From: Octopus vulgaris
Lineage: Eukaryota
Assembly (NCBI GenBank): GCA_951406725.2
Contig: OX597814.1
Span: forward strand, 19,654,001 to 19,718,000
Length of the DNA: 64,000 nt
Direction of reading: 5' to 3'
In this document: piece after piece, positions 461 through 64,000 of the stretch
Layout: the number at the start of each line of letters is the position of its first letter
Numbering within the stretch: position 1 is the stretch's first letter
Translations under genes and position numbers: made by a program
Notes under the pieces: generated by a model
The model's database searches: none
Told to the model about the DNA's origin: nothing
What the model saw: the letters and a program-made list of their open reading frames with translations, nothing else

Positions 461-668
461 GGCAATGTTTTTTTCGTCTTACGACCTCTAACTAATGAAA
501 GAACATGAAGCACTGGTTATTTAATTTGCGTCACACGGGTAGAAGCAATTTAACTCGTCTTCCAGATTGGATCGAATGTAGGATTGGTTACAGTATGGGT
601 TTCTCAATGTATTTTCTTCATACATATGCCTTTTGTGTGGTTTCGGAATTTAATACATTTATAATAAC

Positions 669-1803
669 ATGGACCATATATTTACTCTAACGCAACTGCT
701 TGAGCGAGCAAATGAGTACAAGCTGCCTCTTTGCGTTGCGTTTGTAGACTATGAGAAGGCCTTCGATACCGTCGAAACCAACGCAGCGCTGAACTCGCTG
801 CAGAGGCAAGGAGTCGAAGCGCAATATGTGCAGCTGCTCAGGGAGGCAAATTCCGGATGTACCACCGACATAGCTCTACTGTTATCACCCATACGAGTGC
901 CGGTCGACAAGGGAGTGAAGCAAGGAGATACAATCTCCCCAAAACTTTTCACCGCATGTCTCGAACAGATCATCAGAGGCATCGACTGGCAAGGCGGTGT
1001 CAACATCAATGGCGAGCTCCTCACCCACCTCCGTTTCGCTGATGACATCGTACTCATCGCTGAAAACACGGATCAGCTTCAGACCATGCTGACGGAGCTC
1101 GAAATCAAAAGCTCTGCAGTAGGTCTCAAGATGAACCGCATGAAAACAAAGTTCATGCGGTCAGACAACGTACTAACAGGTCGAATGGTGATCGGCAGTG
1201 ATGAAATAGAGGAGGTAAGGGAATATGTCTACTTGGGACAGGAAGTGAATATGTGCCGAGATATCGAAAAGGAGATCTCACGGAGAGTAAGGGCCGGATG
1301 GAAGGCGTTTAATGGCATAAGGGAAGGTTGGACAGGATCACCCGCGCCAACCTCATTAACAGTACAGTTCTACCTGCAATGTTATATGGAAATGAAACAT
1401 GGGCTACCACAAAGAGAGAAGAGCAGAGACTGGTAACGGATCAAAGAGCCATGGAAAGGTCAAAGCTTCATATCTCGTTGAGAGAGCACATCAGTAGCGA
1501 GATCATCAGAAAGAAGTCCGGCGTGAGAGATGTCATCGCAAAGTATACACGCAGCAAGTATAGATGGGCTGGACACGTCGCCCGGCTCACCGATAATCGG
1601 TGGACCCACGCTGTTGTCGAGTGGTACTCGCGCGAGCGGAAAAGACCACCCGGAAGACCTCCTCGACGGTGGAGTTACGATTTCAGGAGGACGATTGGGA
1701 TCACGTGGATGAGAAAGGCGCGATCCAGAGAGAAGTAGACAGCGTGCTGTGACCAGTGGTATCAAATAGACGCCTGACGGACTGGTCGGTCAAGGCGAAG
1801 GTG
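669..1803 (+). mobile_element. 5'-truncated RTE-clade LINE (RT and C-terminus, one frameshift near 1328)
   Basis: FVDYEKAFD, KGVKQGDTISPKLF, LRFADD, YVYLG, RWAGHVAR and RPPGRPPRRW motifs; candidate 10-bp TSD ATAATAACAT at 661-670 and 1804-1813. Confidence 0.92.
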
Positions 1804-7978: not shown

Positions 7979-8000
7979 ACTAATTTTTCCATTCCTTCTA

Positions 8001-10345
<2,345 letters not shown>

Positions 10346-24477: not shown

Positions 24478-24878
24478 ATAGGGATTAAGAGTTAAAAAGT
24501 AGATTTATAAGGTTATTGGGTTTACCTAAGGGGTATTGTGGAAATATACTGTATAGTCGTTTAGGTATATTTATATATATATATATATATATGTATATAT
24601 CTGTGTGTGTGTGTGTGTGTATATGTATTATGTATAGTAATGTTTATGTGCCAAAAGAATGTGGCAGTCCTATAAAGGACGATGTTACTGTTGTTTTAGC
24701 CCCAGGAAAACATCTTTTACAGCTGGCTTTCGACTCACAGTTTATGTCCGTATACCATTTACAAGGGAGGTCATCGATCCCATCTCTAGCCTTACGTGAC
24801 ACTCACAGAGCTAAGTTTCTGAATGTTGTTCTATATTTTACTAAAATGACAAGGCGGTCACAACTAATATATATTATT
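24478..24878 (-). mobile_element. Fragment of the PLE-derived element at 45298-46910
   Basis: Near-identical reverse complement of 45298-45768. Confidence 0.85.
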
Positions 24879-24883
24879 TTTGT

Positions 24884-32790: not shown

Positions 32791-33699
32791 ATTATCAACA
32801 TTAACGGTGACACACCACTGTGGTTTGCAGTTTCATTATCTTTCTCGACCACGACTCTTGCTGTCCCTAATGTTGCCAAACGCCATCAACGTCACCAGCC
32901 ATCCGCCCGACCACCACCTAGTGCCATGTCGCCGCCTCCGCCCTCAGCTGCGCCGTTCTAAGTGTGACACCGCCATGGTTGTTGCTGATAGCGTCACAAA
33001 CATTACTACCACTAGCACAACTTGTATCAGAGCCACTACCGTATCAACCACGACAACCATCACAACCACTACCTGCACCACCACTATCACAACCACAACA
33101 ACAACCACTACTACTATAACTACCACACAACTACTGCCATTGCTACACTCAGCTACCACAACTATCGCCATAATTACCACCAACACCACCACAACCGTTA
33201 CTTCTAACACCATCACAACAACCACTGCTACCACCAACCACCACTACCATCACAACCACTACCACCATTACCATCACCACCGCTATCACCATACCACCAC
33301 TACCATCACAACCTCTACCACCATAACCACTATCACCACAACCACTGCCAGCAATACCATCACAACCGATACCACCATACCACCACTACTATCATAACCA
33401 CTACGACCACTACCATGACAACCACTATCACCACAATTCCTGCCACCAGTACCGCCACTACTGTCACAACCACTTCCACCAAAACCACTATCACCACAAC
33501 CACTACCACAAATGCCATCACAACCACTGCCACCAGTACCTCCACTACTATCATAACCATTACCAGCACAACTACTATCACCACAACCACTGCTACCAAT
33601 ACCATCACAAAACTACCACCACTACCGGCACAGCCACTACCACCACAACCACTATCACCACAATTACTGCCACCAACACCACCACTACTATCACAACCA

Positions 33700-36600
33700 C
33701 TACCACACAGCCACTACTATCACAATCACTACCACCATAACAACTATCACCACAACCGCTACCATCACGACCACCACAACCACTATCACCGGAACCATTG
33801 CCACCAATACCGTCACAGCCATTACCACCACAACCACTATCAACACAATTACTGCCACCAACACCACCACTACTATCACAACCACTACCATCACAGCCAC
33901 TACCATCACAACCACTACCACCATAACAGCTATCACCACAACCGCTACCATCACAACCACTATCACCAGAACCATTGTCACCAATACCATCACAGCCACT
34001 ACCATCACAACCACTACCACCATAACAGCTATCACCACAACCGCTACCATCACAACCACTATCACCAGAACCATTGTCACCAATACCATCACAGCCATTA
34101 CCACCACAACCACTATCAACACAATTACTGCCACCAACACCACCACTACTATCACAACCACTACCATCACAGCCACTACCATCACAACCACTACCACCAT
34201 AACAGCTATCACCACAACCGCTACCATCACAACCACTATCACCAGAACCATTGTCACCAATACCATCACAGCCACTACCATCACAACCACTACCACCATA
34301 ACAGCTATCACCACAACCGCTACCATCACAACCACTATCACCAGAACCATTGTCACCAATACCATCACAGCCATTACCACCACAACCACTATCAACACAA
34401 TTACTGCCACCAACACCACCACTACTATCACAACCACTACCATCACAACCACTACCATCACAACCACTACCACCATAACAGCTATCACCACAACCGCTAC
34501 CATCACAACCACTATCACCAGAACCATTGTCACCAATACCATCACAGCCACTACCATCACAACCACTACCACCATAACAACTATCACCACAACCGCTACC
34601 ATCACGACCACCACAACCACTATCACCAGAACCATTGTCACCAATACCATCACAGCCATTACCACCACAACCACTATCAACACAATTACTGCCACCAACA
34701 CCACCACTACTATCACAACCACTACCATCACAGCCACTACCACCACAACCACTATCACCATAACAGCTATCACCACAACCGCTACCATCACAACCACTAT
34801 CACCAGAACCATTGTCACCAATACCATCACAGCCACTACCATCACAACCACTACCACCATAACAGCTATCACCACAACCGCTACCATCACAACCACTATC
34901 ACCAGAACCATTGTCACCAATACCATCACAGCCATTACCATCACAACCACTATCAACACAATTACTGCCACCAACCACCACCACTACCATCACAACCACT
35001 ACCATCACACCACTACCATCACAACCACTACCACCATAACCACTATCACCACAACCGCTACCATCACAACCACTACCATCACATACCACTACCATCACAA
35101 CCACTACCACCATAACAACTATCACCACAACCGCTACCATCACGACCACCACAACCACTATCACCAGAACCATTGTCACCAATACCATCACAGCCACTAC
35201 CATCACAACCACTACCACCATAACAGCTATCACCACAACCGCTACCATCACAACCACTATCACCAGAACCATTGTCACCAGAACCATTACCACCACAACC
35301 ACTATCAACACAATTATCACAACCACTACTATCACAACCACTACCATCACAACCACTACCACCATAACAGCTATCACCACAACCGCTACCATCACAACCA
35401 CTATCACCAGAACCATTGTCACCAATACCATCACAGCCACTACCATCACAACCACTACCACCATAACAACTATCACCACAACCGCTACCATCACAACCAC
35501 TATCACCAGAACCATTGCCACCAATACCATCACAGCCATTACCACCACAACCACTATCAACACAATTACTGCCACCAACACCACCACTACAAACAAAACC
35601 ACTACCATCACAACCACTACCATCACAACCACTACCACCATAACAGCTATCACCACAACCGCTACCATCACAACCACTATCACCAGAACCATTGCCACCA
35701 ATACCATCACAGCCATTACCACCACAACCACTACCACCATAACAGCTATCACCACAACCGCTACCATCACAACCACTATCACCAGAACCATTGTCACCAT
35801 TACCACCACAACCACTATCAACACAATTACTGCCACCAACACCACCACTACTATCACAACCACTACCATCACAACCACTACCATCACAACCACTACCACC
35901 ATAACAGCTATCACCACAACCGCTACCATCACAACCACTATCACCAGAACCATTGTCACCAATACCATCACAGCCATTACCACCACAACCACTATCAACA
36001 CAATTACTGCCACCAACACCACCACTACTATCACAACCACTACCATCACAGCCACTACCATCACAACCACTACCACCATAACAGCTATCACCACAACCGC
36101 TACCATCACAACCACTATCACCAGAACCATTGCCACCAATACCATCACAGCCACTACCATCACAACCACTACCACCATAACAACTATCACCACAACCGCT
36201 ACCATCACAACCACTATCACCAGAACCATTGTCACCAATACCATCACAGCCACTACCATCACAACCACTACCACCATAACAGCTATCACCACAACCGCTA
36301 CCATCACAACCACTATCACCAGAACCATTGTTCTCAATACCATCACAGCCATTACCACCACAACCACTATCAACACAATTACTGCCACCAACACCACCAC
36401 TACTATCACAACCACTACCATCACAGCCACTACCATCACAACCACTACCACCATAACAGCTATCACCACAACCGCTACCATCACAACCACTATCACCAGA
36501 ACCATTGTCACCAATACCATCACAGCCACTACCATCACAACCACTACCACCATAACAGCTATCACCACAACCGCTACCATCACAACCACTATCACCAGAA

Positions 36601-39600
36601 CCATTGTCACCAATACCATCACAGCCACTACCATCACAACCACTACCACCATAACAGCTATCACCACAACTTCTACCATCACAACCACTATCACCAGAAC
36701 CATTGCCACCAATACCATCACAGCCATTACCACCACAACCACTATCAACACAATTACTGCCACCAACACCACCACTACTATCACAACCACTACCATCACA
36801 GCCACTACCATCACAACCACTACCACCATAACAGCTATCACCACAACTTCTACCATCACAACCACTATCACCAGAACCAATGTCACCACCATCACAGCCA
36901 CTACCATCACAACCACTACCACCATAACAGCTATCACCACAACCGCTACCATCACAACCACTATCACCAGAACCATTGTCACCAATACCATCACAGCCAT
37001 TACCACCACAACCACTATCAACACAATTACTGCCACCAACACCACCACTACTATCACAACCACTACCATCACAGCCACTACCATCACAACCACTACCACC
37101 ATAACAGCTATCACCACAACCGCTACCATCACAACCACTATCACCAGAACCATTGTCACCAATACCATCACAGCCATTACCACCACAACCACTATCAACA
37201 CAATTACTGCCACCAACACCACCACTACTATCACAACCACTACCATCACAGCCACTACCATCACAACCACTACCACCATAACAGCTATCACCACAACCGC
37301 TACCATCACAACCACTATCACCAGAACCATTGTCACCAATACCATCACAGCCATTACCATCACAACCACTACCACCATAACAGCTATCACCACAACCGCT
37401 ACCATCACAACCACTATCACCAGAACCATTGTCACCAATACCATCACAGCCACTACCAACACAACCACTACCACCATAACAGCTATCACCACAACTTCTA
37501 CCATCACAACCACTATCACCAGAACCATTGCCACCAATACCATCACAGCCATTACCACCACAACCACTATCAACACAATTACTGCCACCAACACCACCAC
37601 TACTATCACAACCACTACCATCACAGCCACTACCATCACAACCACTACCACCATAAAAGCTATCACCACAACCGCTACCATCACAACCACTATCACCAGA
37701 ACCATTGTCACCAATACCATCACAGCCACTACCATCACAACCACTACCACCATAACAGCTATCACCACAACCGCTACCATCACAACCACTATCACCAGAA
37801 CCATTGCCACCAATACCATCACAGCCATTACCACCACAACCACTATCAACACAATTACTGCCACCAACACCACCACTACTATCACAACCACTACCATCAC
37901 AGCCACTACCATCACAACCACTACCACCATAACAGCTATCACCACAACCGCTACCATCACAACCACTATCACCAGAACCATTGTCACCAATACCATCACA
38001 GCCATTACCACCACAACCACTATCAACACAATTACTGCCACCAACACCACCACTACTATCACAACCACTACCATCACAGCCACTACCATCACAACCACTA
38101 CCACCATAACAGCTATCACCACAACCGCTACCATCACAACCACTATCACCAGAACCATTGTCACCAATACCATCACAGCCATTACCACCACAACCACTAT
38201 CAACACCACTACTGCCACCACACCACCACTACCATCACAGCCACTACCATCACAACCACTACCACCATAACAGCTATCACCACAACCGCTACCATCACAA
38301 CAACTATCACCAGAACCATTGCCACCAATACCTTCACAGCCATTACCACCACAACCACTATCAACACAATTACTGCCACCAACACCACCACTACTATCAC
38401 AACCACTACCATCACAGCCACTACCATCACAACCACTACCACCATAACAGCTATCACCACAACCGCTACCATCACAACCACTATCACCAGAACCATTGCC
38501 ACCAATACCATCACAGCCATTACCACCACAACCACTATCAACACAATTACTGCCACCAACACCACCACTACTATCACAACCACTACCATCACAGCCACTA
38601 CCATCACAACCACTACCACCATAACAGCTATCACCACAACCGCTACCATCACAACCACTATCACCAGAACCATTGTCACCAATACCATCACAGCCACTAC
38701 CATCACAACCACTACCACCATAACAGCTATCACCACAACCGCTACCATCACAACCACTATCACCAGAACCATTGTCACCAATACCATCACAGCCACTACC
38801 ATCACAACCACTACCACCATAACAGCTATCACCACAACCGCTACCATCACAACCACTATCACCAGAACCATTGTCACCAATACCATCACAGCCATTACCA
38901 CCACAACCACTATCACCACAATTACTGCCACCAACACCACCACTACTATCACAACCACTACCATCACAGCCACTACCATCACAACCACTACCACCATAAC
39001 AGCTATCACCACAACCGCTACCATCACAACCACTATCACCAGAACCATTGTCACCAATACCATCACAGCCACTACCATCACAACCACTACCGCCATAACA
39101 GCTATCACCACAACCGCTACCATCACAACCACTATCACCAGAACCATTGTCACCAATACCATCACAACCACTATCACCACAACCACTACCACCATAACAG
39201 CTATCACCACAACTTCTACCATCACAACCACTATCACCAGAACCATTGCCACCAATACCATCACAGCCATTACCACCACAACCACTATCACCATATCACC
39301 ATTGCTACCAACACCACCACTACTATCACAACCACTACCATCACAGCCACTACCATCACAACCACTACCACCATAACAGCTATCACCACAACCGCTACCA
39401 TCACAACCACTATCACCAGAACCATTGTCACCAATACCATCACAGCCACTACCATCACAACCACTACCACCATAACAGCTATCACCACAACCTCTACCAT
39501 CACAACCACTATCACCAGAACCATTGTCACCACATACCATCACAGCCACTACCATCACAACCACTACCACCATAACAGCTATCACCACAACCGCTACCAT

Positions 39601-42600
39601 CACAACCACTATCACCAGAACCATTGTCACCAATACCATCACAGCCATTACCACCACAACCACTAACAACACAATTACTGCCACCAACACCACCACTACT
39701 ATCACAACCACTACCATCACAGCCACTACCATCACAACCACTACCACCATAACCAGCTATCACCACAACCGCTACCATCACAACCACACACCAGAACCAT
39801 TGCCACCAATACCATCACAGCCATTACCACCACAACCACTATCAACACAATTACTGCCACCAACACCACCACTACTATCACAACCACTACCATCACAGCC
39901 ACTACCATCACAACCACTACCACCATAACAGCTATCACCACAACCGCTACCATCACAACCACTATCACCAGAACCATTGCCACCAATACCATCACAGCCA
40001 TTACCACCACAACCACTATCAACACAATTACTGCCACCAACACCACCACTACTATCACAACCACTACCATCACAGCCACTACCATCACAACCACTACCAC
40101 CATAACAGCTATCACCACAACCGCTACCATCACAACCACTATCACCAGAACCATTGCCACCAATACCATCACAGCCATTACCACCACAACCACTATCAAC
40201 ACAATTACTGCCACCAACACCACCACTACTATCACAACCACTACCATCACAGCCACTACCATCACAGCCACTACCATCACAACCACTACCACCATAACAG
40301 CTATCACCACAACCGCTACCATCACAACCACTATCACCAGAACCATTGCCACCAATACCATCACAGCCATTACCACCACAACCACTATCACACAATTACC
40401 ACCACCACCACTACTATCACAACCACTACCATCACAGCCACTACCATCACAACCACTACCACCATAACAGCTATCACCACAACCGCTACCATCACAACCA
40501 CTATCACCAGAACCATTGCCACCAATACCATCACAGCCATTACCACCACAACCACTATCAACACAATTACTGCCACCAACACCACCACTACTATCACAAC
40601 CACTACCATCACAGCCACTACCATCACAACCACTACCACCATAACAGCTATCACCACAACCGCTACCATCACAACCACTACCATCACAGCCACTACCATC
40701 ACAGCCATTACCACCACAACCACTATCAACACAATTACTGCCACCAACACCACCACTACTATCACAACCACTACCATCACAGCCACTACCATCACAACCA
40801 CTACCACCATAACAGCTATCACCACAACCGCTACCATCACAACCACTATCACCAGAACCATTGCCACCAATACCATCACAGCCATTACCACCACAACCAC
40901 TATCAACACAATTACTGCCACCAACACCACCACTACTATCACAACCACTTTCATCACAGCCACTACCATCACAACCACTACCACCATAACAGCTATCACC
41001 ACAACCGCTACCATCACAACCACTATCACCAGAACCATTGTCACCAATACCATCACAGCCACTACCATCACAACCACTACCACCATAACAGCTATCACCA
41101 CAACCGCTACCATCACAACCACTATCACCAGAACCATTGTCACCAATACCATCACAGCCACTACCATCACAACCACTACCACCATAACAGCTATCACCAC
41201 AACCGCTACCATCACAACCACTATCACCAGAACCATTGTCACCAATACCATCACAGCCACTACCATCACAACCACTACCACCATAACAGCTATCACCACA
41301 ACCGCTACCATCACAACCACTATCACCAGAACCATTGTCACCAATACCATCACAGCCATTACCACCACAACCACTATCAACACAATTACTGCCACCAACA
41401 CCACCACTACTATCACAACCACTACCATCACAGCCACTACCATCACAACCACTACCACCATAACAGCTATCACCACAACCGCTACCATCACAACCACTAT
41501 CACCAGAACCATTGTCACCAATACCATCACAGCCACTACCATCACAACCACTACCACCATAACAGCTATCACCACAACTTCTACCATCACAACCACTATC
41601 ACCAGAACCATTGTCACCAATACCATCACAGCCACTACCATCACAACCACTACCACCATAACAGCTATCACCACAACCGCTACCATCACAACCACTATCA
41701 CCAGAACCATTGTCACCAATACCATCACAGCCATTACCACCACAACCACTATCAACACAATTACTGCCACCAACACCACCACTACTATCACAACCACTAC
41801 CATCACAGCCACTACCATCACAACCACTACCACCATAACAGCTATCACCACAACCGCTACCATCACAACCACTATCACCAGAACCATTGTCACCAATACC
41901 ATCACAGCCACTACCATCACAACCACTACCACCATAACAGCTATCACCACAACTTCTACCATCACAACCACTATCACCAGAACCATTGTCACCAATACCA
42001 TCACAGCCACTACCATCACAACCACTACCACCATAACAGCTATCACCACAACCGCTACCATCACAACCACTATCACCAGAACCATTGTCACCAATACCAT
42101 CACAGCCACTACCATCACAACCACTACCACCATAACAGCTATCACCACAACCGCTACCATCACAACCACTATCACCAGAACCATTGTCACCAATACCATC
42201 ACAGCCACTACCATCACAACCACTACCACCATAACAGCTATCACCACAACCGCTACCATCACAACCACTATCACCAGAACCATTGCCACCAATACCATCA
42301 CAGCCACTACCATCACAACCACTACCACCATAACAGCTATCACCACAACTTCTACCATCACAACCACTATCACCAGAACCATTGTCACCAATACCATCAC
42401 AGCCACTACCATCACAACCACTACCACCATAACAACTATCACCACAACCGCTACCATCACGACCACCACAACCACTATCACCAGAACCATTGTCACCAAT
42501 ACCATCACAGCCATTACCACCACAACCACTATCAACACAATTACTGCCACCAACACCACCACTACTATCACAACCACTACCATCACAGCCACTACCATCA

Positions 42601-43185
42601 CAACCACTACCACCATAACAGCTATCACCACAACCGCTACCATCACAACCACTATCACCAGAACCATTGTCACCAATACCATCACAGCCACTACCATCAC
42701 AACCACTACCACCATAACAGCTATCACCACAACTTCTACCATCACAACCACTATCACCAGAACCATTGTCACCAATACCATCACAGCCACTACCACCATA
42801 ACAGCTATCACCACAACCGCTACCATCACAACCACTATCACCAGAACCATTGTCACCAATACCATCACAGCCACTACCATCACAACCACTACCACCATAA
42901 CAACTATCACCACAACCGCTACCATCACGACCACCACAACCACTATCACCAGAACCATTGTCACCAATACCATCACAGCCACTACCATCACAACCACTAT
43001 CACCACAATTACTGCCACCAACACCACCACTACTATCACAACCACTACCATCACAGCCACTACCATCACAACCACTACCACCATAACAGCTATCACCACA
43101 ACCGCTACCATCACAACCACTATCACCAGAACCATTGTCACCAATACCATCACAGCCATTACCACCACAACCACTATCACCACAA
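33700..43185. repeat. ~9.5-kb higher-order minisatellite of 99-bp and 78-bp units built from ~15-bp ACCATCACAACCACT monomers
   Basis: Unit A = 6x15+9 bp, unit B = 4x15+18 bp, arranged as AB/AAB/AAAB; degenerate precursor-like zone at 32990-33700. Confidence 0.95.
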
Positions 43186-43269
43186 GCACATACACAGCAA
43201 TTACCACCAGATCCACCGCAACAATCACCCACAATCATCGCTACTTCCACTAAAGATCAGCCAATGTGA

Positions 43270-45297: not shown

Positions 45298-45573
45298 AAT
45301 AATAATATATATTAGTTGTGACCGCCTTGTCATTTTAGTAAAAAATAGAACAACACCCAGAAACCTAGCTCTGTGAGTGTCACGTAAGGCTAGAGATGGG
45401 ATCGATGACCTCCCTTGTAAATGGTATACGGACATAAACTGTGAGTCGAAAGCCAGCTGTAAAAGATGTTTTCCTGGGGCTAAAACAACAGTAACATCGT
45501 CCTTTATAGGACTGCCACATTCTTTTGGCACATAAACATTACTATACATAATACATATACACACACACACACA

Positions 45574-45628
<55 letters not shown>

Positions 45629-53855: not shown

Positions 53856-53901
53856 ACTCACACTGAGGACGGATTACATTCAGAAACCTAGGTCTGTGAG
53901 T
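53856..53901 (+). ncRNA. Minimal type I hammerhead ribozyme with intact core
   Basis: ACTCACA-CTGAGGA-C GGAT TAC ATTC A-GAAAC-CTAG-GTC-TGTGAGT: 7-bp stem I, palindromic ACCTAGGT stem III, GUC site (cut after 53894). Confidence 0.8.
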
Positions 53902-55637: not shown

Positions 55638-56182
55638 TTTGTATGTAAACTTTCCAAAGGCAACGGCTAAGGCAGTAGGTAATTTCCAATGGCAACGGCT
55701 AAGGCATCTGGTAACTAAGTTGAGAAAGAGAGATAAACTCTATTTATTCATTTTTATTTTATTCATGTATTTATTTTTTGTCATTAGTACAAAATGTCTT
55801 AAGATTTCTGAGGCTTTTATTTTTACTTTCAACTACGTAAAAAATAATTTTTTCCAGCACATTCCACCTCACCAAACTGTTCACTTACCTGCCAATCAAT
55901 TATGATCTTGCTGGACTAAAAATGGTGTTGAAGACGATTTAATCAAACGTATACTAATGTAATCCTTATTGTCCTTTCTACACCTTGATGATTTTCCTTA
56001 CATGGTATTTAAAATGCAAAATTATATATTTATATATGCTTTGTAATTTTCATCGTGTTTCTGAAATGAAACAATTGTGGGTGAATATGTTGATTAATTA
56101 ATAAATGAATTTGCATCCATTAGGTCTCTCTGTTTTCTACCTCCATAATAATATTTGATATTTTACGATATTTTATATAATA

Positions 56183-56579
56183 CTAGCAGTATCGCCCGGC
56201 GTTGCTCGGGTTTGTAAGGGAAATAACTATATAAGCATTTTTAGAGAGTTATAGCCAAAAAATAGCAAAAAAATGCATTAAAAATGGAAAAGAAATGATG
56301 GTAATTTTTTTTTAAATCGTTGACTCATCGTAGACATTTTTAGAGAGTTACATCCCTTTATTTAAAAAATATGCGTTAAAATGGAAAAAAATGATGTTAA
56401 ATTATTTTTAAAATCGTAGACTCATCGTAGACGCGTGCTAATACCCAGAAGGGCTCGATATGAATCACGACTATAAGATACCCGGTTTTGGTTAAACTGC
56501 ACCGCAAAATGTGGGAGTAGTTAGGAATCTAAATCATAGGAGACAGACACTCACACAACTTCAGTTTTATATATATAGA
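56183..56579 (-). mobile_element. Complete non-autonomous Helitron (397 bp)
   Basis: Minus strand A|TCTATATATATAAAA ... CCCGAGCAACGCCGGG-CGATACTG-CTAG|T. Confidence 0.88.
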
Positions 56580-56864
56580 TATTCATTCAAGAAATATCGC
56601 TTCAAAATATAATATATTAAAGCAGTGTATTTTGGGAAAAATATCTCTATAAGCGGTTTAGATATATCCTCATTGTGACTATATATATTACATCTCTGTA
56701 TGAGTTTGTGTGTGTGTGTACGTATATGAATGTAGCTACGAATGCCTGTATATACGGATGTATGATATATACGCAAACAAGGATACGTGGGCGTACTTAG
56801 TAACATTTCTACATCTGTACTCATATAACTCAATCACATAATACACACACACACACGCACACAC

Positions 56865-56911
<47 letters not shown>

Positions 56912-57129
56912 CGTGTGTGTGTGTGCGTGTGCATGTGTGTGTGCATGTGCGTGTGTGTGTGTTTGTGTGTATTATCTCATTTTTCCTCCACGTTTCTGCA
57001 TAACCCCTCTCTCTCCCTCTCTCTCAATTTATAAATGTGCATTCTGTAAGTCCATACGTATCTATAAATGTATGTTTGTATTTATTGATGTATGTATGCA
57101 CGAGTATATACATCCACACACACACACAA

Positions 57130-57175
<46 letters not shown>

Positions 57176-57508
57176 GTACACTGTAACATTTTTATATATT
57201 TGTGGGAATGAATATATATATATATATATATATATACATTTATATATATCTATATATATACATATAAATTTATATATATATATATATATACATATCATGC
57301 ATATGCATATATCCATTCATATATATATGAATTATATATGCATAAATATATAAATATATATTATATACACACGTATATATATTTTTGTATGTATATATAT
57401 ATGTGAATATATACATACACACATATGTTTGTGTATATATATATATATATATATAAATATATGAATATGTATACATATATATTTTAACAAACACACACGC
57501 ACACATAC

Positions 57509-57585
<77 letters not shown>

Positions 57586-57897
57586 CATATATACTTATGC
57601 GATACATATTCTTGCAATAACAACAGTAAGACTCAGATTTTCTGTTGGTCTTCAGCCTGCTTCTGAACAGACCACCACCGATGACATAACTTTATAAAGA
57701 TTTATTTCACATTCTTCCCTCTAGGCATATCATTTCACTCTAGATTCAGTTTTAAACCAAATTCTTCACCTTTCCTATGTATATGCATATGTCTATTCAT
57801 GTTCATCTGTCTACATATTACATAACCACATACACATATACTCACATACAGCACATGAATAGACATATAACACACACATGGACATGTACGTATGTAA

Positions 57898-57933
<36 letters not shown>

Positions 57934-58045
57934 TATATATATATATATACATATACATATACATATACATATATATAGTAGTATGCACAGCTACCTCACC
58001 CTCACTCTTTGCATATATAGATAGATATATATGTATACATATGTA

Positions 58046-58124
<79 letters not shown>

Positions 58125-58283
58125 CCTCAGCATCCAATTTTCCTCATTCTACATTGAGAGAAGAAAGAGATGGACGCTTCAATTCTATGCTGCTGCCGCA
58201 TTATGTCGTACGTGAATGAGAGGATTTGCATCCCCAACCAAGAATTTTTGATGTAACACATGTCCTTGCGGAAGCTGTTGTGC

Positions 58284-58361
58284 GCGGCTGAAGAAGGCCA
58301 CAGACATACATTATGCATTGTTATAAATCTGTCTAATAAAGGCCCGAAACATATGTACCGC
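58284..58361 (+). ncRNA. Type I hammerhead ribozyme with intact core
   Basis: GCGG-CTGAAGA-A-GGCC-[41 nt including ACAGA/TCTGT]-GGCC-C-GAAAC-ATAT-GTA-CCGC; cut after 58357. Confidence 0.85.
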
Positions 58362-58479
58362 TGAATCCTTCGCATCATGTTTTTATTTTATTTTGATCAA
58401 TTTACTCCACCACCTACACCACCAAACGGTATACACAGGTGCTTATAATTATCAAGTACTCACCCCGAATTTCTATACT

Positions 58480-58555
<76 letters not shown>

Positions 58556-58661
58556 GTGCTTATAATTATCAAGTACTCACCCCGAATTTCTATACTCAAC
58601 TATATATATATATATATATATATGCTTATAATTATCAGTACCACCCCGAATTTCTATACTC

Positions 58662-58703
<42 letters not shown>

Positions 58704-58822
58704 GAGTATAGAAATTCGGGGTGAGTACTTGATAATTATAAGCACCTGTGTATACCGTTTGGTGGTGTAGGTGGTGGAGTAAATTGATCAAAATAAAATA
58801 AAAACATGATGCGAAGGATTCA

Positions 58823-58900
58823 GCGGTACATATGTTTCGGGCCTTTATTAGACAGATTTATAACAATGCATAATGTATGTCTGTGGCCTTCTTCAGCCGC
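58823..58900 (-). ncRNA. Type I hammerhead ribozyme with intact core (sense to the PLE ORF)
   Basis: Reverse complement of 58284-58361. Confidence 0.85.
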
Positions 58901-60807
58901 GCACAACAGCTTCCGCAAGGACATGTGTTACATCAAAAATTCTTGGTTGGGGATGCAAATCCTCTCATTCACGTACGACATAATGCGGCAGCAGCATAGA
59001 ATTGAAGCGTCCATCTCTTTCTTCTCTCAATGTAGAATGAGGAAAATTGGATGTTGAGGTAATGTAAATAAATAAATACATATATAGAGGTGAAGATGGA
59101 GGAGCGAGAGTTCGGGACGAGGGATAAAAAGTGTATAAAAAGTGTAAGTATAGAATAATATAAAAATGTAGAGGATAAAGATATAAAGAGTTGTAAGGAG
59201 ATGTAAAGGGGGTATAGAGAAATATAAAGAAATGTAAATAAATGTAAAGGCATAAGGTTATAAAGTAAAAATAGAAATAGAAATAAAAGTAAAAAAATCT
59301 GATAAGACCATGATAAAAGTGTAAAAGAATGTAAAGGTAAGGGATGTATAGAGGTTACGGACCAAGCATGGTGGTCAGGAGATTGATAAAATTTAGTTGT
59401 AGAATTGTCAGTAAATCAACAGTAAATCAACAGTTTCGTCTGGGGACTTAATGCGTTGTAAATCAGAGCTGATGAGCATTTAATCTGGTTCCTTGAATTA
59501 AATGGACTTCTAGTACATACATATCATCATGGATACATACACCCACATACACGCGTACATATACGCCTCCAAGCATATAAGCATGCACACGCACTCGCGT
59601 GTCAACACGTACATAAACACACACGCACCCACACGCACGCGCGTACACACACATACATACACCAGAATATCCGCATATATACACGGACATTACGCGCGTA
59701 CACGCTCACATGTATATACGCGCGCCCATCACTACATACACACACGTATATGCCCACGCCTCAAGGTCCAGGTATAAGATATTAAAGGATGTGTATAAGA
59801 ACGTAAGTAAAGAATCTCGTACTCATGTCAATACGCGCACGCACACACGGCTGTGTGTCCGTATGTGCGTGCACATATACACTCACATACACACACAGAG
59901 AGACACACGCGCACATGGGTATAGCTATAAGATATCGAAGTATGCATGTACACATATGCGCGTGCATATGTATGCGTATGCACACGTACGCGGACGCTCG
60001 TATATTCAAAAGATGGATCCATATGTAAGTAAATAAACATATATAGAGGTGTAAAGCGATAAGTTAGGGGTAAGAATGAGGGTAAGGGTAAAGATTAGAA
60101 ATAAAAAATACAGTATAAAATAAGAAATACAATGTAATAGTTAGAAATGAAGTATATGAATTATAAAAATTATAAGAGTTAAAGTAAGGGATGAAAATGA
60201 AAATGAGAATAAATGGAAGTAGAATAAAAGTAAAAATAAAATTAAAAATAAAAATAAATGGAAGTAGGATAAAAATAAAAATAAAAGTAAAAATAAAAAT
60301 AAAATAAAATAAGATAAAAATAAATTTTGTAAAGTTTAACATGAGATGGAGGTGGTTGAAAGTTAGAGGTGTGTGTTAACTGTTGGGGCGGGGGGGGGAA
60401 CTGAAAATTGGAAGGGTGGGAAGTGGAGTTTGGCGGTGTGCGTTCAACATCTGAGTTAGAAATGTGAAAGGGTATAGATATAGGGAATTAAAGAGACTAC
60501 ATAGGGAGGATATGGGTGTAGGAGAAGAAATATTTAGGGAAAAGAAGTCATATATGGGAGACAAAATTTGTATATATAGGGGGAAAATGCAGGGAACCGT
60601 ATATGCACATACACACACCCACACACACACACACACGCACATGTGTATATATATGTATATGTACACATACGTACACGTATGTGCACATACATACGCACAC
60701 ACACACACACACACACATACACACGCACATATAGGAAAGCGGGATGTGCTGGAGCCGACAGGTTGCACCGGGTGGGAGGAAATTGCATGGGGGAGTTGGT
60801 ATAAGAC

Positions 60808-62285
60808 CTAAGCATTGTAGTATTTGAAAGTATTAATAAGTTTATGTATACAGGATGGTTTGAACTCTGACCTTTTGTTAATAAGATTGTGTTTGTCTTT
60901 GAATTTCAAGATGTTCAGGAGTTCTACGCAGCATAGTTGGCATCCTGCTCTATTATTTAAATAAGGTGCAGCTGATCCGATGATGGACCATCTGAGTTTG
61001 AAGCCTATGCATTTGTCTTTTAATTCCCAAATTCTTTTAGAGAGGGAGGTGCTGTTAGCCTTATGTCTGTGTCTCAGCGAGGACCGGTGGTTGTAGTATC
61101 TGGATTTCCAGGAGGTTGAGCAACCAATATAGGTGAGTGTGTTAAACTGAGTACTCACCTCACATGAGTATATTACGTTTTTCGCCCTACATGCGCCCTG
61201 CAGCGGGCACTTTGATGCACATCTGCAGTTGCATTGCATTGTATTATTCGGTCGTGTGCTGCTAATCCCAGGCGGAGGTGTTGCAATACGAGTGGGGGCG
61301 TTGGTATCCTCCTGGTTGTTGATGGGTGTAGTATTTCCTCTGTTGTGTTGGCGGGTGTTATTACTAACTGTTTGGGTAGTATGGCTGTCAGTCTGGTTAT
61401 ATTGTCTACTGTCTAGATGAGGGGGTTCTGTTGGTCGCTATGGTTCGCTCTTGATCTAGCTGTTCTAATATTAATATAGTTATGTTTAGCTATGAGGCAG
61501 CTCATGTTGGGCAGGGTAGAGTAGGAAATCCTAATAGTTTTGTTGGAGAAGATACTTCTATACTTGTGGGTGGGTGGGAAGTTGTTGGAAATTATAGAGA
61601 ATATTCTCTTACATAACTTACCCCTAACTGCTAAGTTGAAAGGTATGTTGAACCATATATATTTGCGTAATCTACTATTATCCCTTCTATTTCTCCTAAT
61701 AGGATCTATATTGTTCTCGTCGGGAGGGTTACTATTGTGTGCTGTTCTATTAGTTCGCCTATTTCCTATACGTTGTTTGGAGTTTAAATTAGAATTATCG
61801 CTAGTGTGAGTTGAGTGCTGAGTTCGATTATAATTGGGAGTCTTATGGCCGACGGACGTTCCCGGGTGGTCTACATATGATATTCTCTGGTTATACCCGG
61901 CACTATAGAGAGCCTGGTTGTAGTGTTGTGCATGATTATTGAAAATTTCTCTATTAGAGGATAGTTTTGTCAGTCTGTCTGAGATGGCTTGGACCGTGGT
62001 GCTAATTATACAGGGTGGATGGTTGGAAGAGGTATGGATGTATTTGGTAGTTTCTTCTGGTTTCCTATACGGGTAGTGAAGGTGCTTATTCAAATCTAAC
62101 GTAACATCTAAGAAGTTTACTATTTTAGTGTTGGTCATGAATTCTAGTTTAAGATTGAAGGATTTGAAAAAAAGCCTGATCTTTTTCCTAATTCTTTCTA
62201 GTTTACTCCTATTGTTGGTGGGGTATATGAAGAGAGCGTCGTCTCTGTATAGACCCCCCTGAAGATCTGGTACCTCGGAGAAGGT
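60808..62285 (-). pseudogene. PLE RT-thumb, linker and GIY-YIG ORF with one frameshift near 61416-61437
   Basis: GLYRDD, VNFLDVTL, PYRKP, YIHTSSNHP, LYSAGY, IWFNIPF, ISYSTLPNM; CNCxxxxxCPxxGxC, VIY...YIG...RYYNH, CQLCCVE, NKRSE...CIH. Confidence 0.9.
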
Positions 62286-62348
62286 ATATATACATATGTA
62301 GGCATATATCCTCACTCTTTGCATATATAGATAGATAGATATGTATAC

Positions 62349-62390
<42 letters not shown>

Positions 62391-62394
<4 letters not shown>

Positions 62395-64000
62395 CCACTC
62401 CTTGAAAAGGATGGCACACTCACAGGAAATCCAATGAGGGTAAGTGAAATACACTAAATGAGCAATTCAAGAGTATTTTCACGCCACCCCTAGGGCATTT
62501 TCGAGGCAGCAATCCAACTGACTTCTTTACCACTGCAGATATAAAATCGGAGGCACCAATGATTGATTACATCAATATAAAGGAAGACGATGTAATAAAG
62601 GCTATCGATGAAATGAAAACAAACTCAGCTACTAGCCCAGATGGATTCCCAGCAATCCTTCTAAAAGTATGTAAGAGAGTCCTAGCAAGACCACTGCAGT
62701 TCCTCTTTTAGAGCTTCCTTGCAACTGGCAAACTTCCAAGAAAATTGAAGGAAGGTAAAATATGCCCTATTCATAAAGGAGGTAGCAGAGTGGAGGTCAA
62801 GAACTACAGACCTATCTCTCTCACCTCACACATCAGCAAGGTCATGGAACGAATAGTCAGAAGGAAACTAATCACATTCCTTGAAGAAAATGACTTGCTG
62901 CCTGACACTCAACATGGTTTCCGACCAGGAAGAAGCTGCTTAACTCAGCTCCTACAACACTATGACTGGGTGCTGAAACGACTGCTCAACCACTCAAATG
63001 TGGAAGTGATATATCTCGACTTTGCAAAGGCCTTTGATAAAGTCGATCATGGAATGCTATGTCACAAACTGCGTGATCTTGGCATAGTTGGAAAGTTTGG
63101 AAAGTGGCTTCATGACTTTCTGAAGGATAGAAATCACATGGTAGTAGCCAATGGGGCCACTTCCACTAACACGCAAATAGTGAGCGGTGTTCCGCAGGGC
63201 ACTGTTTTGGGACCCCTACTTTTCATAATGGCCCTCTCAGACATGCCCTCAGCCACGCAGAGAGCCACGATCACAAGTTATGCAGATGATACAAAAGTTT
63301 CACAGGCAATACAGAACCCTGAGGACACTAAGCACCTGCAATGTGAGCTGGACAAAATATACAAGTGGGCTGAAAAGAATAGCATGCAGTTCAATGTTGA
63401 AAAGTTTCAAGCTCTATGCTATCAGCACGCAAAACTAAATGCAATACCCAATGAATACACTGGACCTGGAAGGACTGCAATTCCAGAGGCACAATCAGTG
63501 CGAGACCTGGGTATTTACATGAGTGATGATGTAACCTTTCATGTGCATGTTGCTAAATTGGCAATGAAATGTAGGCGGCTGACCAGATGGATTCTTAGAA
63601 CCTTCAGAACAAGAGACCAGGAAACCATGATGGTCCTCTTGAGGACACTTGTCCTAAGCCATTTTGACTATTGCTCTCAGCCATGGTCACCATCTAGTGT
63701 CAAGTTAATCACAGAACTTGAGGCGATCCAACGAAGCTACACGAAGAAGATAGCCTCTGTGCAGCATATAAGCTATTGGGAAAGACTGAAGAGATTGAGA
63801 CTCTATTCCTTAGAGCGTAGGCGAGAAAGATATGCCATAATATACATATGGAAGATCCTAGAAGGACTTGTCCCAAACTTTGGCATCAAGAGTTACACAA
63901 ATGCCAGAACTGGGCGCCACTGCATAGTGCCAAGGACTCCAAATTTGCCATCAAGATGTAGGACAAGATACTGTGATAGCCTGGGCTTCCGAGGCCCACA
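62391..64000 (+). mobile_element. 5'-truncated CR1-group LINE RT region, running off the window
   Basis: Manual translation: SPDGFP, PIHKGG, NYRPISLTS, QHGFRPGRSCLTQL, YLDFAKAFDKVDH, SGVPQGTVLGPLLF, YADDTK, RDLG; one stop near 62709. Confidence 0.92.

Follow-up and report, generated by a model that had tools for sequence, protein, structure and literature searches.

How does a retroelement whose copies normally meet head to head come to lie with its 3′ ends pointing at one another? This question is raised by a locus in the genome of Octopus vulgaris, within a stretch of 64,000 nucleotides of contig C1 (C1:19,654,001-19,718,000; hereafter the window, in which all positions without a contig name are counted). 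The locus is a tail-to-tail insertion of a young Penelope-like element (PLE) of the Hydra type, present as a broken copy, and its layout, the reverse of that usual in the family, is a rare variant within it. The locus was compared with the other copies of the family by scans of the 2.8-Gb assembly (227 contigs). On balance, we think it probable that the 3′ end of the element was recopied backwards in the same insertion event, by fold-back on the self-complementary TA tract, the tail-to-tail layout thus being likely a one-off fold-back copying accident.

Layout of the insertion and rules of the family

Measured from the predicted cut of a hammerhead ribozyme motif, the 3′ ends of the family lie either about 32-47 nt (short ends) or about 114-125 nt (long ends) downstream, and in the listed copies they are followed by (TA)n, except where the sequence continues into the open reading frame (ORF). 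Exact long-end motifs occur at least 717 times genome-wide and exact short-end junctions at least 456 times. Long/short pairing was compared on C1 and the first 146 Mb of C2; the matches listed there (100 long and 62 short ends) form 37 head-to-head long/short pairs and no short/short pair, the single long/long pair is an internal read-through (L098), and the present locus is the only tail-to-tail arrangement. One short/short pair was found on C3, among 100 short ends listed, and such pairs are undercounted, since the short-end pattern sees one junction only. The arms of normal pairs have private variants in common (e.g. L036, L056 and L074), and one RNA therefore serves both arms. By analogy with a PLE protein that, in vitro, cuts and extends both strands, starting at two internal RNA sites (PMC11167929, which treats the later integration steps of PLEs as unvalidated), priming from both strands of one break likely makes the normal head-to-head layout. 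A preliminary description of the locus had invoked such opposite-strand priming for the tail-to-tail arms, which, alone, it does not explain.

At the locus, all four 3′ ends lie at the long start site, and no short end is present. The right arm (58701-59063, minus strand) is the element's own 3′ pseudo-long terminal repeat (pLTR), ending at that site, and the left arm (58121-58482, plus strand) repeats the final 362 nt of the element in reverse orientation. The two are identical at 361 of 362 positions (58121-58482 against 58702-59063), and the sole mismatch is a private G at 58130, facing 59054. The two 362-bp convergent arms of the preliminary description were thus recovered, and its identification of a PLE with tail-to-tail arms is supported. 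It had both 3′ ends meeting in one (TA)n tract, but the 219 nt between the arms consist of three TA tracts (69, 23 and 36 nt) and two extra plus-strand copies of the 3′ end. Their order is a 69-nt TA tract (58483-58546), a 54-nt reversed 3′-end copy of 100% identity (58547-58600), a 23-nt TA tract (58601-58622), a 42-nt reversed copy with two 1-nt deletions (58623-58664) and the central 36-nt TA tract, which is the inversion axis (58665-58700). In all, three reversed 3′-end copies face the main element across TA repeats.

The main element continues on the minus strand through a 3′ untranslated region (UTR) of 1.7 kb (59064-60807; 93-98% identity to other family copies) and its coding part to a 27-nt TA-rich filler at the 5′ junction (62283-62309). 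The entire unit is enclosed by a direct repeat, missed in the preliminary description, of about 52 nt of unique sequence and a TA tract. The left copy (58000-58122) has a TA tract of 71 nt (58052-58122), the right copy (62310-62391) has one of 38 nt and differs from the left copy at two positions, in a microsatellite context; the 21-nt start of this duplication occurs twice in the genome, both times at this locus. The insertion was held to be young in the preliminary description, and this is borne out by 11 private differences in 3581 nt of the body (0.31%) and one in 362 nt between the arms (0.28%), figures that give body and arms the same young age.

When the whole genome was scanned for long ends that face each other at a distance of up to 250 nt, this locus, one chance match (C3:14.26 Mb) and one further real case, at C11:25.76 Mb, were returned. 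A tail-to-tail pattern with gaps of 4-34 nt gave no match, in a range that excludes this locus (gap 37) and without a positive control. A further candidate, C4:100.62 Mb, was rejected, as it combines a head-to-head insertion with a chance match. We found no described tail-to-tail PLE insertion in the open-access literature. As described in PMC8557442 and PMC3846280, canonical complex PLE insertions have an inverted 5′-truncated pLTR and a one-sided tail; the family as a whole is similar, with head-to-head long/short pairs, whereas this locus has its 3′ ends inward, long ends only and two extra short copies.

Clade assignment, hammerhead motifs and RNA start

The minus strand carries a reverse transcriptase (RT) with the LYRDD motif, a Cys-rich C-terminal endonuclease (EN) and the long 3′ UTR, as previously described, but there is no intact ORF. 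The RT (61413-62282, beginning just before YRDD and including the thumb) and the linker with the EN of GIY-YIG type (60808-61437) are in different frames; the coding part is 5′-truncated at 62282 and has a frameshift in a C-run near 61420. The shorter C-run is common to 3 of 10 distinct copies, and the other 7 read through it. Selenocysteine read-through, a Naiad trait, was considered at the coding break and rejected, the break being a frameshift. No Pfam family was found in either of the two reading frames of the element at the locus. No functional protein can be encoded by this copy.

A natural intact copy on C11 (L044) has an 818-aa open frame (P0001), with YRDD at residue 339 and the linker and EN from residue 678, i.e. 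RT followed by EN; a PDB sequence search with P0001 returned nothing. The start codon is located 70 nt beyond the long 3′ end, as seen in five natural partial tandems. Motifs were counted over 95 proteins, P0001 and 94 relatives, among them Argonauta proteins, and the RT precedes the linker in all 64 proteins in which both were found. P0001 reads ADKTGN, and DKT is present in 58 of the 95 proteins, by a pattern unable to register DKG. At the N-terminal RWK position P0001 reads RIRWA (RWK in 36 and RWR in 9 proteins). The linker motif CxCX5C was counted in 65 proteins, CxLCxxE in 73 and CxH in 68. Both P0001 and the EN frame of the locus have CxCX5C, CxxC and CxH near a conserved E and N, and no CCHH; in P0001, there is no cysteine pair between the two GIY-YIG core strands.

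In PMC8557442, Hydra elements are described as having a single ORF with RT then GIY-YIG, DKT, RWK, CxCX5C, no CCHH and a (TA)n target, and its supplement lists an octopus element, Hydra-1_Obim, and Hydra hammerheads in which a base beside the core is extra or unpaired. Because of the RT-then-EN order, DKT, CxCX5C, the CxxC and CxH pairs and the missing CCHH, we place the family in the Hydra clade of C-terminal EN+ PLEs, whose motifs it carries, and the element would thus be a new family of a known clade. The likeness to the clade includes the CxxC and CxH around E and N, the (TA)n target and, compared by eye, a hammerhead in which an extra base or an unpaired position separates the core from stem II. 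Judged by eye, the RT core of P0001 is closely similar to that of Hydra-1_Obim. Unlike the Hydra elements described there, the natural octopus unit is about 4.7 kb long, above a Hydra tendency (not a defining motif) of less than 3 kb, owing to a linker that is longer and to the 1.7-kb 3′ UTR; loop II of the hammerhead measures about 41 nt (3-10 nt in the Hydra motifs listed there), and the tail measures about 80 nt (30-40 nt in Hydra).

The Naiad assignment of the preliminary description does not hold. In the same paper, Naiads have in common with this family a (TA)n target, a Cys-rich endonuclease region and presence, as remnants, in cephalopods, but they are characterized by an N-terminal EN, DKA, a CCHH finger inside the GIY-YIG core and no canonical hammerhead, each of which is contradicted here by the C-terminal EN, DKT, the missing CCHH and a complete hammerhead core. 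Neptune and Nematis, defined there by a CX2-5CxxC linker and a CCHH motif, are ruled out by the CxCX5C linker and the missing CCHH.

Each arm contains a type I hammerhead motif (58284-58361, plus strand, and 58823-58900, minus strand) that reads GCGG-CUGAAGA...GAAAC-AUAU-GUA-CCGC, with a 4-bp stem I and the palindromic stem III ACAUAUGU, and with a predicted cut at GUA (58357/58358 in the left arm). A custom descriptor matched both arms and none of 5000 shuffled arms or 100 shuffled windows, in agreement with the cores first noted. These hammerheads are not minimal, as had been proposed: CUGAAGA and GAAA are 51 nt apart, stem-loop II is long, and position 10.1-11.1 is A.C. The Rfam scan suggested as a check (56000-64000, E ≤ 5) returned 143 matches, mostly microRNA models on simple repeats, and no hammerhead, which is explained by the long stem II rather than by absence of the motif. 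When the isolated motif was folded, stems I and II had probabilities of about 0.75-0.8 and stem III was weak as a monomer (about 0.2); two copies are predicted to co-fold via the stem III palindrome. A dimer cannot arise within one transcript, since the two hammerheads of the locus are on opposite strands. The complete core with stems I-III is also found across the family, and variation among copies is 0.2-0.65% in the core and stems, 0.76% in loop II and 1.88% in the rest of the pLTR. The low core variation hints at selection, with the caveat that the copies share ancestry and that the 1.88% value is inflated by alignment ends. According to PMC4209133, cleavage in vitro by metazoan PLE hammerheads is poor, and pairs lying close together on opposite strands had already been noted.

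The descriptor gave one further match in the window, a second, unrelated minimal hammerhead (53858-53898, plus strand) with the palindromic stem III ACCUAGGU and a GUC cut site. It belongs to an older repeat family (2342 first-look candidates, the best 82-90% identical, with several head-to-head pairs), and it is likely another PLE pLTR.

In the family, 233 pieces reach a 3′ zone and 182 of them are truncated within 785 nt; after removal of 8 rows (3 from this locus and 5 repeats within L070 and L086), 174 5′ ends were available. Thirty of these lie 200-215 nt before the hammerhead cut, 8 of them exactly at the A of an initiator-like TCATTC (58144-58149, plus strand, with the A at 58146), which is the most frequent 5′ end among the copies. 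The density of 5′ ends is 1.9 per nt at the cluster and 0.32 per nt downstream (Poisson p 6e-14, with both arms of each insertion counted and rows that are not independent). We infer a transcription start at this cluster, with a TATA-like stretch upstream; the alternative is an RT pause site. Hammerhead-cut RNA as the template was rejected, as 2 of the 174 5′ ends lie within 2 nt of the cut and 1.6 were expected. In these respects the family resembles Poseidon_Ac (PMC11167929), for which AT-rich targets, internal RT initiation at two sites close to the ORF start or just upstream of it, and no genomic sign of hammerhead-cut RNA as template are described. The octopus family differs from it in that its sites are about 80 nt apart and in that its insertion ends almost always use different sites, whereas PMC11167929 describes no strand difference in vitro.

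Origin of the reversed copies

Tail-to-tail repeats are the predicted result of 3′ self-priming on the sense template, and head-to-head repeats are those commonly seen (PMC3846280); snap-back and loop-out synthesis have been described in end joining (PMC5728401). In the event that we favour, the endonuclease would cut (TA)n, and one 3′-OH would prime reverse transcription at the long site, yielding a cDNA of 3.58 kb. The new sense strand, ending in (AT)n, would fold back and copy its own end; the copying strand would twice slip back into the TA tract, the first time after 42 nt and the second after 54 nt, would then run for 362 nt and would switch, at an AT-rich (TA)n-like stretch of the element, to the TA tract of the left flank. 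Either the RT of the element or a host repair polymerase could act in fold-back and switch. Synthesis-dependent end joining, as presented in PMC5728401, likewise includes hairpin-primed inverted copies and direct repeats made by slippage at a break; however, the copies described there are short, against 362 nt here, and the break here is a retroelement insertion.

In favour of this reading, the junction CTCAAC/TATATA occurs 39 times genome-wide, 3 times at this locus and 36 times elsewhere, i.e. in about 5% of the roughly 714 other long-end motifs, and two further independent primings at it would therefore have a chance of about 0.25%. Short tandem 3′-end copies within 150 nt were found at this locus only, in a genome-wide scan. 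The equal age of body and arms and the unique duplication around the whole unit also speak for it. The left arm end adjoins a stretch that matches (TA)n at 18 of 23 positions, and the left arm begins 25 nt upstream of the RNA start proposed above, so it is not a run-off from the RNA 5′ end.

A tendency to TA-centred fold-back was seen at other insertions of the family. The second tail-to-tail locus (C11:25,760,870-25,761,840; L086 and L089-L091) consists of mirror arms across about 200 nt of (TA)n and (GA)n; the arms have private rearrangements in common and have lost the intact hammerhead, and some 150 nt of host flank are part of the mirror, which points either to an artefact or to fold-back of DNA at a long TA tract. 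At L047, 10 nt of host sequence are repeated in inverted orientation about (TA)n, and iterated fillers are present at the junctions of L003, L006 and L034. At L032 (C10:27.037-27.045 Mb), a head-to-head insertion has two long ends and host flank inverted over about 1.25 kb, as a rearrangement or an assembly fold-back.

Several points weigh against the fold-back origin. An RT complex held in register on the RNA could return to the same junction, and the 0.25% figure therefore rejects independent insertions but not repeated RNA priming. The junction of the left arm is one base shorter than the other three ends. The spacer tracts of 69 and 23 nt exceed half of the 36-nt central tract, and slippage must therefore also have lengthened them. 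The arms have no informative private variant in common, because the right arm equals the commonest type of the family. The flank duplication is atypical, as none of 42 other insertions surveyed has a non-microsatellite duplication of more than 11 nt. Transcription is read solely from truncation points. The four sequencing runs are represented by contigs that pass over the TA tracts, and no read spans the locus. The fold-backs at C11 and L032 may also be products of the assembly.

Of the alternatives, the one that survives best is RNA-templated repeat priming, an idea close to that of the preliminary description; we regard it as possible but not probable. The same ribonucleoprotein would prime three times at the long RNA site, twice abortively, with TA added between rounds, either because opposite-strand nicks flank a paired TA duplex or because the (AT)n end of the second strand is returned to the RT. 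A PLE protein does cut and extend both strands and starts inside the RNA (PMC11167929), and all four ends lie at the long start site, yet a normal second end uses the short site (37 long/short pairs) and no short end is present here. The one-base junction difference is as expected from independent priming, whereas three identical junctions of a 5% class demand a fixed register. The family also contains solo 3′ cDNAs of about 55-70 nt (L066, L076 and L204), but host DNA was inverted as well in the C11 case, which requires a DNA template.

We consider it unlikely that the reversed cluster is an assembly or read artefact, a fold-back chimera made at the TA tract. A simple fold-back would mirror the 3′ UTR past 362 nt; here the mirror stops and rejoins the unique left flank, which is present in other samples (57600-57885, 4 of 4 runs). 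The junctions themselves are bridged by no independent contig from these runs, but the two asymmetric extra pieces would need at least three extra junctions, and the substitution that distinguishes the arms is absent from all other copies compared. Read errors could account for three single-base deletions in the reversed pieces, and mirror images including host flank exist at the C11 and L032 loci. Independent later insertions into the TA tract beside the first copy are very improbable: although the family always ends in (TA)n, with at least 717 long ends, and every insertion leaves a new target, three extra events would be needed in one tract, in the same orientation and nearly all with the 5% junction, with both arms of the commonest type and tandem short ends within 150 nt at no other locus.

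Predicted hairpin RNA, neighbouring sequences and bearing on the family

The RNA start proposed above is retained by both arms, at 58146 (plus strand) and 59038 (minus strand). In the left arm, the TA tract of the flank ends about 25 nt upstream of 58146 and replaces the native TATA-like stretch at a similar distance. Either arm would thus be predicted to fire into the other and to yield a hairpin RNA of about 340 bp. For the transcript 58146-59038, a single hairpin is predicted in silico (321 long-range pairs, -715 kcal/mol), in which the hammerhead is buried, in line with the masking of the ribozyme by read-through double-stranded RNA anticipated in the preliminary description; even for the nascent RNA before the antisense arm, the minimum-energy structure is without the ribozyme fold. 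Any hairpin-RNA or editing role at the locus is speculative.

Directly to the right of the insertion lies a LINE-type RT fragment (62448-64000, plus strand; Pfam RVT_1, E 5e-32) with an internal stop, and further LINE RT remnants, judged by eye, are at 654-1436 (plus strand) and 7998-9764 (minus strand). The listed ORFs of the window include no host gene, although such a list could still miss a position of the locus inside an intron. A 10-kb ACC-rich tandem array (33200-43250; periods 15, 99 and 177) holds Thr-rich open frames of more than 1000 aa, interrupted by frame changes, and is either a minisatellite or a mucin-like exon. The window also contains an inverted pair of 316 nt, 97% complementary and 20 kb apart (24566-24881 and 45298-45613).

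Other copies of the family provided further observations. Two copies of the 7-mer CACCTAC, separated by 74 nt, lie a few bases past the short and the long start zone, respectively (seen at the pLTR-ORF junction of L097 and at 58411-58417); the first copy opens a predicted small hairpin, and the repeat is possibly a start signal. At C4:23,559,080-23,559,840 (L070/L092), a mini-element is made of tandem and inverted units of about 238 nt without the hammerhead core, each running from about 5 nt before the hammerhead cut in the pLTR, through the tail, to about ORF base 115; this unit may represent the smallest cis-acting part. A local duplication is suggested by two family stumps of 291 nt, identical and in tandem, 1855 nt apart (L093, C2:54.882-54.884 Mb). 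A 1549-aa open frame with helicase-like motifs (L040, 3900-8549, minus strand) abuts the 5′ end of a family copy and may be similar to a Helitron Rep/helicase.

A bolder reading, which we regard as doubtful, is that the Hydra RT, like its telomerase relative, works reiteratively, re-priming one RNA site at an internal break and laying down (TA)n between rounds, and that the convergent pLTR promoters make a silencing hairpin RNA. If this were true, some of the TA tracts beside elements would be products rather than targets, and the hairpin RNA from convergent promoters could silence the whole family, which has more than 700 copies. The locus alone is one dead copy. The young family to which it belongs, however, gives countable rules: each two-ended insertion has one long and one short end, 5′ ends cluster at an initiator-like site, and there is no trace of ribozyme-cut templates. 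The locus is an exception with the layout predicted for sense-strand self-priming, and it makes the choice between snap-back and repeated RNA priming testable.

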